Assembly: GCA_902625415.1 (NCBI GenBank)
Contig: CACOBG010000006.1
Location: forward strand, 496 to 64,495
Source: an uncultured SAR86 cluster bacterium
Lineage (GTDB): Bacteria; Pseudomonadota; Gammaproteobacteria; Magnimaribacterales; AG-339-G14
Reading direction: 5' to 3'
Length of the DNA: 64,000 nucleotides
The notes beneath the pieces were generated by a model, which saw only the letters and a list, made by a program, of their open reading frames with translations, had not been told where the DNA came from and did no database searches. Within the stretch, counting starts at the first letter, position 1. Every line of letters starts with the position of its first letter. Position numbers and translations under genes: made by a program. This document shows, one piece after another, positions 28,016 to 34,163 of this stretch.

Positions 28016-28021
28016 CTTTTG

Positions 28022-29695
28022 ATGAGTTTTTTACAGAATAAAAAGAAAATTAAAGGAGCTGAGCTTTTTATTCGATGTCTAGAAGAAGAAGGCGTAGAGT
28101 ACATTTTTGGTTTACCCGGAGAGGAAAATCTCGATTTTCTTGAATGTCTTTGTAAATCAAACAAAATCAAACTTATTTTAACAAGGCACGAACAAGGAGC
28201 AGGATTTATGGCAGCTACCTATGGAAGGTTAACTGGAAAAGCTGGTGTGTGTTTGACAACTTTAGGCCCAGGTGCAACCAATTTAGTCACTTCTGCAGCT
28301 TATGCCCAACTTGGAGGAATGCCGTTAGTGATGATAACTGGTCAAAAACCAATAAAGAATACTAAGCAAGGTAAATTCCAAATTTTGGATGTTGTAGATT
28401 TAATGCAGCCAATAACTAAATATACCCATCAAATATCTTCAGCTAATATGATCGCCTCAGAAGTGAGAGAAGCTTTTAGGCTTGCCGAAGAAGAAAGACC
28501 AGGCGCAGTTCATCTTGAATTACCTGAAGACATTGCAGTTGAAGAAACAAGGAGAAGACCTTTGCTAAAAAGTGTCGTACGACGTCCTGTACCAGATGAA
28601 AAGTCTATAAATCAAGCTGTAAAGTTGATTGAAGACTCGAAAAGACCACTTCTGGTTCTAGGAGGCGGAGCGAACAGAACTAGCACAAGTAAAATGCTTC
28701 TGGAATTTGTTGAGAAAACAAAAATTCCTTTCATCACAACTCAACTAGGTAAAGGTGCTTTAAATGAGAGACATGAAAATTTTCTTGGGTGCGCTGCTCT
28801 GACTGATGGAGATTTCGTTCACAGAGCTATTGAAGAATCAGATCAAATTATTACAGTCGGTCAAGATAACTTTGAAAAGCCTCCCTTTATTATGCAAGAA
28901 AAAAAAGGAACCAAGGTCATACATATTGATCACATAACAGCAAGTGTCAATGGTATCTACTTTCCGCAATTGATGGTCACTGGAGACATAGCGAATGCTA
29001 TTTGGCAAATCAAAGAAAAAATAAAAATAAACCCCCAATGGGATTTTTCAAAAATGCTTCAAACGAGAAAAGCTCATTTAGAACATTCTGAAAAAATCAG
29101 AGAGGATAGTAGATTTCCTATTTTTCCTCCGTACTTAGTTCGACAAATAAGAAATGCAATGCCAGAGGATGGAATAATTACGATGGATAACGGCGTATAT
29201 AAACTATGGTTTGCTAGAGGTTATCCTGCACTCAATCAAAATACCGTTATTTTAGACAACGCCCTTGCAAGTATGGGGGCCGGGCTACCATCTGCAATTA
29301 CAGCCGCAATGATATTTCCAGATAAAAAAGTTATTTCTGTATGCGGAGATGGAGGCTTCATGATGAATAGCCAGGAGTTAGAAACTGCAGTAAGGCTAGG
29401 AGTGAATCTTACAGTAGTAATTCTAAATGATAAGGCTTACGGAATGGTTAAATGGAAACAAGAAAATATGAAGTTTTCCGATTTTGGTTTAAGTTTCGAA
29501 AACCCTGATTTTGTAAAATATGCTGAGGCCTATGGTGCCAAAGGTCATCGAATTAATAATGCTGAAAACCTAATAAAAACCTTAAAAGCTTGCTTAGATT
29601 CTCCCGGCGTTCATGTTATAGATTGTCCTGTTGATTATAGCGAGAATGATAAGATTCTAAATAAAGATTTAAAAAAAATTAGTTCAGCTTTATAA
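28022..29695 (+). CDS. ThDP-dependent enzyme of the acetolactate-synthase-large-subunit-like family; candidate 2-oxoglutarate decarboxylase
   Basis: GAELFIRCLEEEGVEYIFGLPGEENL, RHEQGA, TLGPGATNL, GDGGFMMNSQELETA, NDKAYG, DCPVDYSEN. No small regulatory subunit is adjacent. An alternative TTG start lies at 28019. Confidence 0.85.
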   Translation: MSFLQNKKKIKGAELFIRCLEEEGVEYIFGLPGEENLDFLECLCKSNKIKLILTRHEQGAGFMAATYGRLTGKAGVCLTTLGPGATNLVTSAAYAQLGGMPLVMITGQKPIKNTKQGKFQILDVVDLMQPITKYTHQISSANMIASEVREAFRLAEEERPGAVHLELPEDIAVEETRRRPLLKSVVRRPVPDEKSINQAVKLIEDSKRPLLVLGGGANRTSTSKMLLEFVEKTKIPFITTQLGKGALNERHENFLGCAALTDGDFVHRAIEESDQIITVGQDNFEKPPFIMQEKKGTKVIHIDHITASVNGIYFPQLMVTGDIANAIWQIKEKIKINPQWDFSKMLQTRKAHLEHSEKIREDSRFPIFPPYLVRQIRNAMPEDGIITMDNGVYKLWFARGYPALNQNTVILDNALASMGAGLPSAITAAMIFPDKKVISVCGDGGFMMNSQELETAVRLGVNLTVVILNDKAYGMVKWKQENMKFSDFGLSFENPDFVKYAEAYGAKGHRINNAENLIKTLKACLDSPGVHVIDCPVDYSENDKILNKDLKKISSAL

Positions 29696-29829: not shown

Positions 29830-31218
29830 ATGCAGGAAATAGATACTTCTAAAGTAAAAGAAAGTTCAATTAATGATCTTGTAGAAAGAGCGCGTATCGC
29901 TCAGGCCAAGTATGAATCATTCTCACAACAACAAGTTGATGCAGTTGTTCGAGATATTGGAAAATTTGTTTACGACAATGCTGAGTCATTAGCAAAAATG
30001 GCCGTTGAGGAGACCGAAATGGGATCCTATGAAGATAAAATACTCAAAAATAAGGGAAAAGCCCGAGTTATTTGGAATAATTTGAAGGACAAAAAGTCTA
30101 GAGGTGTGATCGGCGAAGATAATGAAACTAACCTAGTCTTTGTCGCAAAACCAATGGGAGTTGTAGCTGCTGTAACTCCTGTTACTAATCCAATTGTAAC
30201 TCCAATGTGTAATGGCATGTTTGCTCTTAAAACCGGTAACGCAGTTATTTTTGCATCTCATCCTAAGGCTCAAAAATGTGCAGAGTACTTAACCTCTGAA
30301 TTTATGAAAATAGTTAAGTCTCATGATGGTCCAGATAATCTCATTCAAGTTGTTACTAATGGGTCAGTAGAAAAGACTCAACAACTCATGCAATCTGCTG
30401 ATGTAGTTGTTGCTACAGGAGGCGGAGCGATGGTTAAATCAGCCTATTCTTCAGGTAAACCATCCTTTGGAGTAGGAGCTGGGAATGTACCAGTTATAAT
30501 AGATAGAAATGTAAATTTAAAAGAAGCTGTTGAAAAAATTGTAGACGGGGCGTCTTTCGATCATGGCATCATTTGCTCTCATGAGCAATTTGTAATAGCT
30601 CCTGAAGAAAATTTCGATCAAACAATAGAATTATTCACAAATACAGGAAAGGTATGGTTTACGGATGATAAATCACAAATACAAAAGCTTCGCGAAGTCG
30701 TATTCCTCGATGGCCACTTGAATAAGGATGTGGTGGGAAAATCGGCAAGCGATGTTGGTAAAATGGCAGGCATTGAAGTCCCCGACTCCGCAAAATTGAT
30801 TTTGCTTCCAGCAGATGGATCGGGAAATGAAGATGTTCTTGCTAAAGAAAAGCTCTGTCCAGTGATAGCAATAGTACCTTATTCAACTTTTGACAATGCA
30901 GTTGCTATGGCAAAAGCAAATCTTTTAGTAGAAGGCGCAGGTCATTCGGCAGCTTTACACTCAAATGATGATAAAAACATCAAAATGGCAGGCATTGAGC
31001 TTCCCATCAGTCGCCTTGTTGTCAACCAACCAAGCTCTACTACTGCTGGGGGCTCTTTAACAAATGGTTTTGCACCGACTACTACTTTAGGTTGTGGTTC
31101 ATGGGGAGGTAATTCAATTTCTGAAAATCTTGATTACAAGCACTTAATGAATGTTTCTAGAATTGGAAAAGTTATAACTGATAAAGAAGTTCCATCAGAT
31201 GAAGAAATCTGGGCTTAA
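29830..31218 (+). CDS. CoA-acylating aldehyde dehydrogenase, succinate-semialdehyde dehydrogenase / succinyl-CoA reductase type (Clostridium SucD-like)
   Basis: AVEETEMGSYEDK, VAKPMGVVAAVTPVTNPIVTPMCN, ATGG..MVKSAYSSGKP..GVGAGN, catalytic GIICS, KEKLCP, GAGHSA, PTTTLGCGSWGGNSISENL, C-terminal VPSDEEIW. These closely track my recollection of C. kluyveri SucD. Confidence 0.8.
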   Translation: MQEIDTSKVKESSINDLVERARIAQAKYESFSQQQVDAVVRDIGKFVYDNAESLAKMAVEETEMGSYEDKILKNKGKARVIWNNLKDKKSRGVIGEDNETNLVFVAKPMGVVAAVTPVTNPIVTPMCNGMFALKTGNAVIFASHPKAQKCAEYLTSEFMKIVKSHDGPDNLIQVVTNGSVEKTQQLMQSADVVVATGGGAMVKSAYSSGKPSFGVGAGNVPVIIDRNVNLKEAVEKIVDGASFDHGIICSHEQFVIAPEENFDQTIELFTNTGKVWFTDDKSQIQKLREVVFLDGHLNKDVVGKSASDVGKMAGIEVPDSAKLILLPADGSGNEDVLAKEKLCPVIAIVPYSTFDNAVAMAKANLLVEGAGHSAALHSNDDKNIKMAGIELPISRLVVNQPSSTTAGGSLTNGFAPTTTLGCGSWGGNSISENLDYKHLMNVSRIGKVITDKEVPSDEEIWA

Positions 31219-31366
31219 TCATTTAATTTTTTAGAGTTATCCTAAATTTAGCTTTTTTGAGCTCTTATAATTTTTTTGCATAAAATAAATAATAAGTTTA
31301 TACAATTAATTATAAAAAATTGCTGTACCTTATTTTTTTATATAAATGTGGTACAATAAATTTGAG

Positions 31367-32791
31367 ATGGACAAGAAATATTTATTCAAAAGAAACAACG
31401 TATGGTGGGTGAAACTAGCTGTACCTGTGTACCTTAGAGACAAGTTAGGTTTTGATTTAAGAAAATCTACAGGAGAAAAAGATTTGGAAAAGGCGCTTCT
31501 TGTGAGAGATAGCATTTTAAGTGAATTTAAAGCTAAGTTTTCTTCAGACATAGATCGTAAACCTTCTTCAGAGACAAACTTTTCAAACAAAACAACATAT
31601 CTTGATTATGCATCAACTACTCCAGTTGATGAAAGAGTCATTGAAAAAATGAAAGAATGCTTATCTTTTGAAGGGGCTTTTGGAAATTCAGGTTCTAGAT
31701 CGCATGTGTATGGTTGGAAAGCAGAAGAACTCGTTGAGGAAGCTCGTCTTAACGTATCGAATTTATTAAGTTGTGATCCAAGAGAAATTATTTGGACTTC
31801 TGGAGCTACTGAATCCGATAATTTAGCAATTAAAGGTGCAGCTTATTTTTATCAATCAAAAGGCAGACACATAATAACATCCAAAATTGAGCATAAAGCT
31901 GTACTCGATGTGTGTAGGCAGCTTGAGAAAGAAAACTTTGAAGTCACGTATTTGGATCCTGATGAGAGCGGTGTTATTTCTCCTCAAGCAGTCAAAGATG
32001 CAATTAGAGAAGACACAGTTTTAGTTTCGCTTATGCAGATTAACAATGAAATTGGAGTTCTCAACGATATTGATCAAATAGGATTAATTACTAGGGAAAA
32101 CGGCACCATCTTTCATGTTGATGCAGCTCAAAGTGCAGGAAAAATTCCCATAAATCTAAGTAAACTTAATGTAGATTTAATGTCTTTTTCCGCTCACAAA
32201 ATATATGGACCTAAAGGAATTGGAGCTTTGTATATTCGAAGAAAACCAAGAGTCAGATTGCAACCGCTTTTCCATGGCGGAGGTCAGGAAAGAGGAATCA
32301 GAGCAGGAACTTTACCCACTCATCAGATAGTAGGAATGGGAGAGGCTTTTAGAATCGCTCAAGAACAAATGGAGATTGACCACAAAAGGCTTACCAACTT
32401 TAGATCCATTCTATGGAATGGTCTAAAAGATATGGAAGAAGTTTATATAAACGGATCTATAGAAAATGGTTTTCCCGGCATATTCAACATGTCGTTTAAC
32501 TTTGTAGAAGGCGAATCTCTAATTATGGCTCTTAAAAATATTGCTGTTTCATCTGGATCAGCATGTACATCAGCTAGTCTCGAACCTTCCTATGTTTTAA
32601 GGGCACTTGGTAGGCCTGATGAGCTGGCACACAGTTCAATTAGATTTTCTTTCGGAAGATTCACAAAGAAAGAAGAAGTTGAGAACACCGTAGATCTTGT
32701 AAAAAATTCTGTATCTCAATTAAGAGAAATTTCACCTCTTTGGGAAATGTACCAAGATGGTATTGATTTAGATAAGATTGAATGGGCATAA
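31367..32791 (+). CDS. iscS: IscS cysteine desulfurase with a fused N-terminal DUF6538-like (integrase arm-type) domain
   Basis: IscS core: [37 protein letters not shown]. It is preceded in frame by [33 protein letters not shown]...A. The start at 31367 is preferred because a TG-N-TACAAT box (31349-31357) lies within the ORF-track codons from 31346. Confidence 0.9.
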
Positions 32792-32812: not shown

Positions 32813-33235
32813 ATGGCATATTCACAAAAAGTAGTTGATAAATTTGAAGAAACTTTAAAGAATCCAGAAGGCGCAAGCGTCGGAAGATGGAAGCCGGGGG
32901 ATAAAGATTTCCACAGGGTTGGAACTGGTATTGTAGGAGCTCCAGCATGCGGCGATGTCATGAAATTACAAATTAAGTGTGAGAATATCGAGGGCGAAAA
33001 TAGAATTGTTGATGCTAGATTTAAAACTTATGGCTGTGGGTCTGCAATTGCGTCTAGCGGCCAATTAATTGATATGCTAAAAGGTAAGACTCTAGAAGAG
33101 GCTCAGAATATTTCTAACCAAGAAATCGTAGATATTTTAGAATTACCTGCAATCAAAATTCACTGTAGTGTTCTTGCAGAAGAAGCTATTCACAGAGCTA
33201 TAGATGACTTTAAAAGTTTAAGAAATAATGACTAA
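32813..33235 (+). CDS. iscU: Fe-S scaffold IscU (variant LPAIK motif)
   Basis: MAYS.KV, VGAPACGDVMKLQIK, ARFKTYGCGSAIASS, KIHCSVLAEEAI. Confidence 0.96.
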   Translation: MAYSQKVVDKFEETLKNPEGASVGRWKPGDKDFHRVGTGIVGAPACGDVMKLQIKCENIEGENRIVDARFKTYGCGSAIASSGQLIDMLKGKTLEEAQNISNQEIVDILELPAIKIHCSVLAEEAIHRAIDDFKSLRNND

Positions 33236-33963
33236 TGCCAAAAATAAAAGTTTTACCTCATGAAGAGCTTTGTCCAGAAGGGATTGAGTTTGAAGCAGAA
33301 GAAGGCAAGTCTGTCTGTGAAAACTTATTAAATCATTCCGTTGATATAGAACATGCTTGTGAACTTTCTTGTGCATGCACAACTTGTCATGTAATTTTTG
33401 TTGAAGGATTTAACTCTCTTAATGAGTCATCAGATGACGAAGAGGATCTTCTAGATAAAGCTTGGGGCTTAGAACAAAGATCAAGATTGAGTTGCCAAAC
33501 AATTGTTTCTAATTCAGACTTAACCATCGAAATTCCGAAATATACAATAAATATGGTTTCTGAGAATCACCCAAAGCCTAAGAATGATTTAAGTAGAGAA
33601 ATATCATCAGCTGACTTTAATATTTCTAACTCTGCCGCTAAACACCTTAATTCTATGGTTGCATCTGAAAATTCTTCTGGGGTTAGAATTTCCCTTAAGG
33701 ATTCGGGATGTTCTGGCTTTGCCTACCAAATTGATCTAGTAGAAAAAATTGAAGAAAATGACTTTAATGGATTAATAAATGGAGTTAATTTATTCATACA
33801 AGATAAAAGTTTTATTTTCCTGAAAGGAACAAAAATAGATTTTGTGAAAAAAGACTTAAACGAAGAATTAGTTTTCTTAAATCCAAATGTTTCTGCGGAA
33901 TGCGGATGCGGAGAGAGTTTTAACTTTGATTCTAGTTTGATAAAAGATTTGTCTACAAGATAG
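33235..33963 (+). CDS. Fusion of ISC [2Fe-2S] ferredoxin and an IscA/HesB-family A-type carrier
   Basis: N-half MPKI.VLPH.ELCPEG, HACELSCACTTCH, SRLSCQ, IPKYTIN. C-half ISNSAAKHL, SGCSGFAY, NPNVSAECGCGESF. No stop or Met at the junction. Confidence 0.9.
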   Translation: MPKIKVLPHEELCPEGIEFEAEEGKSVCENLLNHSVDIEHACELSCACTTCHVIFVEGFNSLNESSDDEEDLLDKAWGLEQRSRLSCQTIVSNSDLTIEIPKYTINMVSENHPKPKNDLSREISSADFNISNSAAKHLNSMVASENSSGVRISLKDSGCSGFAYQIDLVEKIEENDFNGLINGVNLFIQDKSFIFLKGTKIDFVKKDLNEELVFLNPNVSAECGCGESFNFDSSLIKDLSTR

Positions 33964-34163
33964 TGTCTATGAACTGGTCAGATACTTTCGAGATCGTAGA
34001 TATTCTTTGCGAACAATTTCCAGATGTAGATCCTGAAAAAATTCTTTTTATTGATCTTATGAATTTGGTTCTGTCTCTGGAAGGTTTCGAGGGCAAAAAA
34101 GAAAACTGTAATGAAAGAATCCTAGAGGCTATACAATCTCTATGGATAGAGGAGAGCAATTAA
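33963..34163 (+). CDS. iscX: Fe-S assembly protein IscX
   Basis: MNWSDTFEI...L...PDVDP..I.F.DL...V..LEGF......NERILEAIQ..W. Confidence 0.93.
   Translation: MSMNWSDTFEIVDILCEQFPDVDPEKILFIDLMNLVLSLEGFEGKKENCNERILEAIQSLWIEESN

Follow-up and report, generated by a model that had tools for sequence, protein, structure and literature searches.

The 64,000-nucleotide stretch of DNA analysed here (contig CACOBG010000006.1 of an uncultured SAR86 cluster bacterium, positions 496 to 64,495; in the following, the window) contains an iscS gene whose product is a fusion protein. The open reading frame (ORF) at 31346..32791 of the plus strand encodes one 481-aa protein, composed of a DUF6538-type domain, a linker and a complete cysteine desulfurase IscS. 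The DUF6538-type domain, or head, was found at the N-terminus of four different enzymes, accompanied in every locus examined by copies of a short DNA motif, AAGGTACA. From these sequence comparisons it is proposed that the head and a promoter/operator carrying AAGGTACA make the attached enzyme autoregulatory through DNA binding, a reading to which a probability of about 0.6 was assigned.

The fused desulfurase and its N-terminal head

An earlier note on this DNA, made from the sequence alone, had described an in-frame N-terminal extension on IscS, and both the ORF and its Pfam domains confirmed the extension. Aminotran_5 was found at residues 84-447 (E = 2e-85, 370/371 model positions) and DUF6538 at residues 12-66 (E = 3e-5, 24 bits), the latter match covering model positions 1-56 of 60. 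With 24-25 bits for these 56/60 positions, the window copy stays below the curated cut-off of PF20172 (DUF6538), which is 27 bits; copies of the same clade lay above it with 43.8 and 40.8 bits, and PF20172 was also precomputed for five metagenome clusters. The conserved start codon is the ATG at 31367 and not the first ATG at 31346: every relative begins at the equivalent of 31367, all orthologues start MD(K/T)KYL, and no start codon lies near the junction in any of them. Counted from this start the extension comprises 76 residues, i.e. a 58-aa domain and an 18-aa linker, which refines the earlier figure of about 75 residues. The last in-frame ATG, GTG or TTG ahead of the IscS core is a GTG at V53, inside the domain, and the linker contains none, in agreement with the earlier statement that neither a Met nor a nearby alternative start precedes the core. 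The core itself has no start codon of its own; unfused relatives start MNTYYFDY or MKPLYFDY. By its sequence the core is an IscS, as judged by its class-V aminotransferase fold, the lysine that binds pyridoxal phosphate (PLP), the loop cysteine and the adjoining iscU. Both the PLP-lysine motif and the SSGSACTS loop were invariant across 29 IscS orthologues. The fused gene is the sole IscS-class match in the 1.22-Mb genome, and the identity of the fused IscS to unfused IscS of the SAR86 order was 66-71 %.

The fusion architecture of 474-475 aa (counted from the conserved Met) was present in 8 of 41 related genomes searched, belonging to three GTDB genera, and the IscS fusion was also found in 14 SAR86 genomes of the GTDB set and in about 40 metagenome protein clusters (Tara, JGI, ENA and Logan). 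Some of these clusters had more than 100 members, with source contigs of up to 110 kb. This recurrence in genomes and metagenomes rules out that the fusion is an assembly artefact. All 29 SAR86-order genomes that gave a match among the 41 searched had the domain in exactly one copy. Ratios of nonsynonymous to synonymous substitution rates (dN/dS) were calculated by the Nei-Gojobori method from pairs with unsaturated dS (0.25-0.83), and amounted to 0.02-0.09 for the domain, 0.4-1.8 for the linker (19 codons) and about 0.02 for the IscS part. The total length of 474-475 aa in all orthologues means that the length of the linker is fixed, and 21 residues were invariant in a set of 10 sequences spanning the fusions to IscS, to a GltD-like protein and to KorA. 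The low dN/dS of the domain, together with a neutrally evolving linker of fixed length, indicates a head that folds and functions as a domain, attached by a drifting tether. The domain is under strong purifying selection, and the fusion is obligatory and selected; as the shared start of the relatives and the dN/dS of the domain show, it is conserved, it does not evolve neutrally and the protein does not start downstream.

The identification of the extension as a DUF6538-type domain was likewise upheld, since all sequences of a diverse alignment (72/72) matched PF20172, with no other family matching consistently, and a profile of the domain retrieved integrases. Among 1.84 billion representative proteins, this profile, built from ten SAR86 and Woeseiaceae copies, had 196 matches in all. 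The top matches, with 78-125 bits, were enzyme-fused copies or their fragments, and the others scored 33-60 bits. Eight long matches (384-523 aa) were scanned for domains; all eight contained DUF6538, six of the eight Phage_integrase, and most also a SAM-like domain. Integrases composed of DUF6538, SAM-like and Phage_integrase domains were matched by the profile with E values of 1e-9 to 1e-7. At the level of sequence the head is homologous to the N-termini of tyrosine recombinases, and the enzyme-fused copies are a distinct, highly conserved subclade, set off by bit scores. Pfam detected only DUF6538 and Aminotran_5-related families in the window protein, with neither a core-binding (SAM-like) nor a catalytic recombinase domain, and the protein is therefore not a recombinase. 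The sequence of the domain is also devoid of cysteine ligands for a cluster.

A model of the domain obtained with AlphaFold2 from the 72-sequence alignment had a predicted local distance difference test score (pLDDT) of 82 and the topology beta1 (6-9), beta2 (12-18), a short helix (21-27), beta3 (30-34) and a helix (40-63). An arm-binding-type fold, consisting of a three-stranded sheet and a long helix, is thus predicted. In BFVD, Foldseek matched the model weakly (E 0.01-1, with probabilities of up to 0.99), mostly to integrases of phages and to HNH endonucleases; the integrase matches, with a probability of 0.77-0.99 and E of 0.17-0.8, were statistically non-significant. The beta-strand residues Y, L, R, WWVK, VP, G and DLR were invariant across the enzyme-fused clade, and the long helix varied. 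Residues W14, K16, D30 and R32 of the domain, which lie in predicted strands, were invariant in this clade and different in integrases. Such clade-specific invariant strand residues would fit an invariant DNA motif.

Partner enzymes, origin of the fusion and candidate operator

Other SAR86 genomes of the window's family (f1) carried a domain copy 55-75 % identical at the N-terminus of a 670-683-aa GltD/NfnB-like protein with Fer4_20, Pyr_redox_2 and two 4Fe-4S motifs. This fusion is encoded by the first gene of a korA-korB (2-oxoacid:ferredoxin oxidoreductase, OFOR) operon, which in these f1 relatives runs divergently from a normal 401-aa iscS (MNTYYFDY start). The sister family f2 showed the same arrangement of kor head and iscS, with iscR between them. 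KorA (700-726 aa) carried the domain in Woeseiaceae and on a related metagenome contig, away from isc, and in a metagenome contig of 62 % guanine plus cytosine (GC) it was found on a PyrK/NfnA-like protein heading a GltD-like-korA-korB operon. The domain is therefore shared by four partner proteins, IscS, GltD/NfnB-like, KorA and PyrK/NfnA-like. Judged from these loci, the domain is the ancestral head of the kor operon in SAR86, in Woeseiaceae and in another lineage, and it is found on IscS secondarily, in genomes without kor. The suggestion of the earlier note that IscS had captured the domain from a mobile element was not borne out by this distribution.

The IscS and GltD-like fusions are homologous through the linker up to '..F(L/S)xKT' and then diverge, the GltD-like fusion continuing with DISDPQYFHKV and the IscS fusion with IscS sequence. 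Head and linker were accordingly joined precisely at about codon 4 of iscS. The korA gene was present in 0/8 IscS-fusion genomes, as against 4/4 of the kor-head genomes tested. One inversion, with end-points after the linker and just inside iscS, could have made the fusion by swapping the 5' ends of the head-to-head genes. A programmed invertible switch was also considered and is ruled out, because the IscS-fusion genomes lack kor altogether. That the domain was kept after the loss of its original host protein speaks for a function that does not depend on the partner enzyme.

Sites of the type GGTACA/TGTACC were clustered within about 200 bp 5' of the domain start in every locus examined (Table 1); these loci comprised sets of 20 and 30 loci plus further loci, including Woeseiaceae, family f2 and the 62 % GC contig. 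The two bases 5' of the hexamer, which had not been used in site selection, were A in 74 and 80 of 92 distinct sites, compared with 25 % and 36 % among all GGTACA of the genome. Owing to this enrichment of flanking AA over the genome background, the motif was defined as AAGGTACA. The hexamer occurs 232 times in the 1.22-Mb genome (0.19 per kb), and its densest cluster, four copies in 110 bp, lies at 31324-31433, at the fusion gene; the whole window contained 20 sites, where 9 ± 2.7 were expected from shuffles. Of the 27 copies of AAGGTACA in the genome, the only intergenic one is that ahead of the fusion gene, indicating that the motif is neither a general promoter type nor the mark of a large regulon. 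A wider regulon was considered and not supported, the remaining copies being inside ORFs. As a control, the region from -700 to +100 of iscS was inspected in eight genomes that belong to the same order and lack the domain, and seven had no GGTACA and one had a single copy. The motif accompanies the domain across four partners, three lineages and 34-62 % GC, whatever the neighbouring genes.

In all IscS-fusion loci a site of minus orientation was found at -39 to -44 and the TGTGGTACAAT site, located within the 21 bases between the two ATGs, at -14 to -18, with a spacing of 25-27 bp between the two upstream half-sites. In the window this pair lies at the cores of the two 20-nt arms, 31316-31335 and 31344-31363, of an imperfect inverted repeat. 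The TGTGGTACAAT site probably also serves as a promoter, although a simple consensus scan did not call one there. The start codon follows 9 nt after a TACAAT that is preceded by TG, and at most a GAG is available as ribosome-binding site; from this layout the fusion transcript may be leaderless or nearly so. At kor-head loci the proximal GGTACA lay 7-27 nt ahead of the ATG.

Table 1. Features of the fusion locus and its surroundings in the window, and GGTACA sites (negative positions, counted from the domain start) at loci carrying the domain on other partners
Feature	Position	Strand	Remarks
DUF6538-type N-terminal domain	31367..31540	+	M8-F65 of the 481-aa ORF; 58 aa; Pfam, dN/dS, AlphaFold2
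Linker, 18 residues (S66-T83)	31541..31594	+	sequence drifts neutrally, length conserved
Complete IscS core (group I cysteine desulfurase)	31595..32791	+	Aminotran_5; PLP-lysine motif; catalytic-cysteine loop SSGSACTS
Operator-like site AAGGTACA (plus strand: TGTACCTT)	31324..31331	-	36-43 nt ahead of start codon
TGTGGTACAAT, second GGTACA site	31348..31358	+	overlaps extended -10-like TGnTACAAT; 9 nt ahead of ATG
Two more GGTACA sites	31420..31433	-	within domain codons A-V-P-V-Y-L (GCT GTA CCT GTG TAC CTT); the first in most loci
Sites at SAR86 genus-g1 kor heads	-120, -71, -12
Sites at other SAR86 kor heads	about -190/-215, -137/-165, -20 to -27		one locus instead -239, -186, -62
Sites in family f2			six sites between iscR and kor head
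Sites in Woeseiaceae	-180/-191 and -40, or -113, -107 and -17
Sites on the 62 % GC contig	-79, -32, -7
iscU	32813-33235	+	directly 3' of iscS; putative operon member
Ferredoxin-IscA fusion	33235-33963	+	short/overlapping junctions; putative operon member
iscX-like	33963-34163	+	same strand; putative operon member
Thiamine diphosphate (ThDP) enzyme	28019-29695	+	purC-iscS slot, where sister genomes hold kor
Aldehyde dehydrogenase	29830-31218	+	purC-iscS slot, where sister genomes hold kor

Proposed autoregulation and alternative roles of the head

The head is proposed to be a domesticated tyrosine-recombinase N-terminal domain (DUF6538, arm-binding-type) that would recognise AAGGTACA. Together with the flexible linker and its own promoter, which has at least two AAGGTACA sites, it would constitute a portable cassette at the operon head, allowing the first-encoded enzyme to repress or otherwise tune its own transcription, as one site overlaps the -10 region. 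The ancestral cassette would have headed the kor operon, which in family f1 stands head-to-head with iscS, and in the kor-less lineages the cassette would have been inverted relative to kor-bearing relatives, in frame to about codon 4 of iscS. The IscS of E. coli forms a homodimer. In a dimer of the fusion protein, the two tethered heads could face the inverted half-sites across the -10 region, and accumulation of IscS would then exert a direct negative feedback on iscS-iscU-fdx/iscA, in a genome without IscR. In kor-head SAR86, which also lack IscR, the distal sites lie in the region shared with iscS, and the head may already affect isc there; such a prior influence on isc expression would explain its retention when kor was lost. 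The regulatory role through DNA binding that had been suggested earlier gains comparative support from the conserved AAGGTACA cluster at the promoter. We infer the binding itself from sequence, and the sign of the regulation and any sensing of Fe-S (iron-sulfur) status are putative as well. On the broader idea the chances were judged to be even. According to this idea there is an unrecognised class of self-regulating enzymes, in which a movable 'operon head' (integrase arm-binding domain, AAGGTACA operator and promoter) shifts between first genes (KorA, GltD-like, PyrK-like and IscS), and in abundant SAR86 lineages this head would be the only dedicated regulator of Fe-S biogenesis, desulfurase feedback replacing IscR-type cluster sensing.

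The distribution of IscR bears on the last point. A search for Rrf2/IscR (PF02082) gave no match in this genome or in family f1 (25 genomes, with IscS fused or unfused) and was positive in all 14 control genomes; the earlier statement that no iscR lies upstream is therefore correct. IscR and the domain were both present in family f2, IscR was present and the domain absent in family f3, and family f4 had neither. Read on this distribution, the domain predates the loss of IscR and is no one-for-one replacement of it. The claim that the extension occupies the position normally held by iscR, and replaces IscR, consequently stands as a topological description and for the absence of IscR from f1, but not as a substitution, as f2 has both, f4 has neither and f1 genomes with unfused IscS also lack IscR.

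Several observations weigh against autoregulation by DNA binding. To our knowledge DUF6538 is formally a domain of unknown function, and its position and predicted fold are the grounds for assuming that it binds arm sites in integrases. Foldseek comparison of the domain model with the Protein Data Bank (PDB) gave nothing significant (best E = 1.2) and a hidden Markov model search of PDB sequences found no relative of the domain, so that no solved structure backs the predicted arm-binding fold; of the three-stranded arm-binding fold expected in the earlier note, the sheet and helix were thus predicted, and a significant structural match was not obtained. The full-length AlphaFold2 model from 29 orthologues had a pLDDT of only 52, including the IscS core, because the alignment was too shallow, and was not used. 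With regard to the motif, the start-proximal site could simply be a -10 element (TACAAT, TACACT), a T stood two bases after GGTACA in 51 % of sites, and the upstream sites had all one orientation in several lineages, a pattern that would fit an RNA target as well. The intragenic sites may result from the Ala-Val-Pro codons; a codon-usage test of these GTACC sites did not separate selection at the DNA level from coding constraint. Finally, the IscS tree demands at least two changes of architecture and the tree of the 60-aa domain is a star, so that the IscS fusion may have had one origin or several. Recombination between lineages could account for both trees.

The alternative that best survives is a role of the domain other than DNA binding, e.g. 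protein docking, oligomerisation or stabilisation of Fe-S enzymes, with AAGGTACA being a promoter element or the target of another regulator. This would agree with the lack of a demonstrated function of DUF6538 and of a significant structural match in the PDB, with the resemblance of the proximal site to a -10 hexamer, and with the fact that the partners are all Fe-S-related enzymes, which could share a protein partner. It is nevertheless considered unlikely, since the motif tracks the domain over all partners, lineages and base compositions listed above, does not occur at iscS in genomes lacking the domain, and has no other intergenic copy in the genome, and since the closest relatives of the domain are recombinase N-termini. 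Less probable still is that the domain binds its own mRNA, in the leader or the first codons, and autoregulates translation instead of transcription. The AAGG part of the motif resembles a Shine-Dalgarno core, and several lineages have all their sites on the coding strand near the start (-7, -12, -27 and, intragenic, +54 and +62). The IscS-fusion and genus-g1 kor loci, however, have conserved sites of opposite orientation (-42, -71) that are not on the mRNA, sites reach to about -200, the upstream sites in the window form an inverted repeat, as is typical of the recognition of duplex DNA, and Rfam gave no family match in the leader.

Very improbable is the view that the head anchors IscS on nucleic acid in order to deliver sulfur, either in DNA phosphorothioation or in tRNA thiolation, or that it is a direct Fe-S-sensing substitute of IscR. 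In E. coli, thionucleosides receive their sulfur from IscS, and IscR is absent from the whole of family f1, but no DndC was found in the genome, the KorA, GltD-like and PyrK-like partners have no role in sulfur transfer, the domain coexists with IscR in f2 and both are missing in f4, and the domain lacks cysteine ligands for a cluster. The phosphorothioation and sulfur-delivery idea of the earlier note thus found no support, DndC being missing and the domain also sitting on three unrelated oxidoreductase subunits. The idea that the extension is a neutral relic, i.e. that a rearrangement cost iscS its start and a former kor leader peptide only supplies promoter and ATG, is in keeping with the rearranged head-to-head gene pair and the neutral linker, but is refuted by the dN/dS of the domain, which in pairs with a dS of 0.25-0.73 is near that of IscS, by the 21 residues invariant across IscS, GltD-like and KorA fusions, and by the preserved linker length.

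Relation to known systems and neighbouring genes

Enzymes that also act as regulators, the trigger enzymes and enzyme-repressor fusions, include PutA with an N-terminal ribbon-helix-helix, BirA, NadR and MocR/GabR, in which a winged helix-turn-helix precedes a fold-type-I PLP domain. The fused IscS resembles them in combining a metabolic enzyme with an N-terminal DNA-binding domain (here predicted), a flexible linker, an operator at its own promoter and an oligomeric enzyme that would permit bivalent binding, and it shares the fold-type-I PLP domain with GabR/MocR. It differs from them in that its module is a recombinase-type DUF6538 and not a helix-turn-helix or ribbon-helix-helix, in that this module occurs on four unrelated enzymes, and in that regulation is deduced here from sequence. 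At this level, a competent enzyme and a DNA-binding-type domain in one chain would place the fused IscS among trigger enzymes. These are functionally its closest counterparts, and by descent the head belongs with the N-terminal domains of tyrosine recombinases. With the arm-type domains of the latter (lambda Int, Tn916 Int and the DUF6538 subgroup) it has in common the family, the N-terminal position, the predicted sheet and helix, and multiple short sites in both orientations near the gene. In contrast to recombinases, the head protein has neither a core-binding nor a catalytic domain, so that no recombination is possible, and its domain is attached to metabolic enzymes and present as a single copy per genome with a match.

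IscR, the Rrf2-family [2Fe-2S] repressor of iscRSUA, exerts negative feedback on isc from a promoter-overlapping site, as is proposed for the head. The fold of the head is unrelated, however, and without cluster ligands it would read the concentration or engagement of IscS, not Fe-S occupancy. The AP2/ERF-type domains of integrases, HNH homing endonucleases and plant transcription factors are a precedent for the recruitment of a beta-sheet DNA-binding domain from mobile elements to regulation; for the head, no link to them was found at sequence level and the structural similarity was not statistically significant. The searchable literature contained no account of DUF6538, including DNA binding by it, of a DNA-binding IscS or of isc regulation in SAR86, and in it no cysteine desulfurase or OFOR subunit was described as a DNA-binding enzyme fusion (trigger enzyme). 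What would be new is an enzyme-regulator fusion whose predicted DNA-binding module is of a new type, whose partner enzymes are new and which comes with a candidate operator.

SAR86 are among the most abundant bacterial groups of the surface ocean and have very few transcription factors. The question addressed by the fusion is how Fe-S biogenesis, which is costly in iron, is controlled without IscR in these streamlined bacteria. If the proposed autoregulation is true, a desulfurase with its own DNA-binding head would be a minimal regulatory solution, DUF6538 would for the first time be assigned a function, along with a candidate recognition sequence, recombinase arm-binding domains would prove exaptable as regulators of core metabolism, and a cassette of promoter, operator and domain moving between operons would be documented.

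Downstream of the fused gene, the ORF at 33235-33963 joins a 2Fe-2S ferredoxin (Fer2, residues 12-91) to an A-type carrier (Fe-S_biosyn, 128-226), and this single ORF was kept in sister SAR86 genomes. Neither hscB nor hscA was found in the isc operon of the window. Upstream, the slot between purC and iscS held one of two gene sets, either korB-korA-GltD-like, which is rich in Fe-S and on the minus strand, or the ThDP enzyme and the aldehyde dehydrogenase on the plus strand, in which no Fe-S domain was detected. Across 12 genomes the anticorrelation between korA presence and the IscS fusion was perfect. Either set could turn a 2-oxoacid into acyl-CoA, pointing to a replacement that spares iron; this swap of an Fe-S-rich kor operon for an Fe-free pair bears on the iron economy of the ocean. 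In one IscS-fusion genome (G014) the ThDP-enzyme gene ended directly 5' of the fusion gene, without an intervening aldehyde dehydrogenase, and the fusion protein of this genome grouped with that of G022, a genome of another genus, hinting at locus exchange between lineages. The unfused iscS of G007, a long-read metagenome-assembled genome, had a broken frame, with a 310-aa ORF and a 91-aa fragment in place of 401 aa, maybe due to a frameshift or an assembly error.

Paired copies of AAGGTACA occurred at two further places in the genome. One is a pair inside an ORF on contig C7. The other is a perfect palindrome, AAAGGTACA-N6-TGTACCTTT, outside the window at C1:290588-290611, covering codons ~9-18 of a 483-aa ORF that was provisionally read as trpE-like; it might be a second target of the domain or have arisen by chance.

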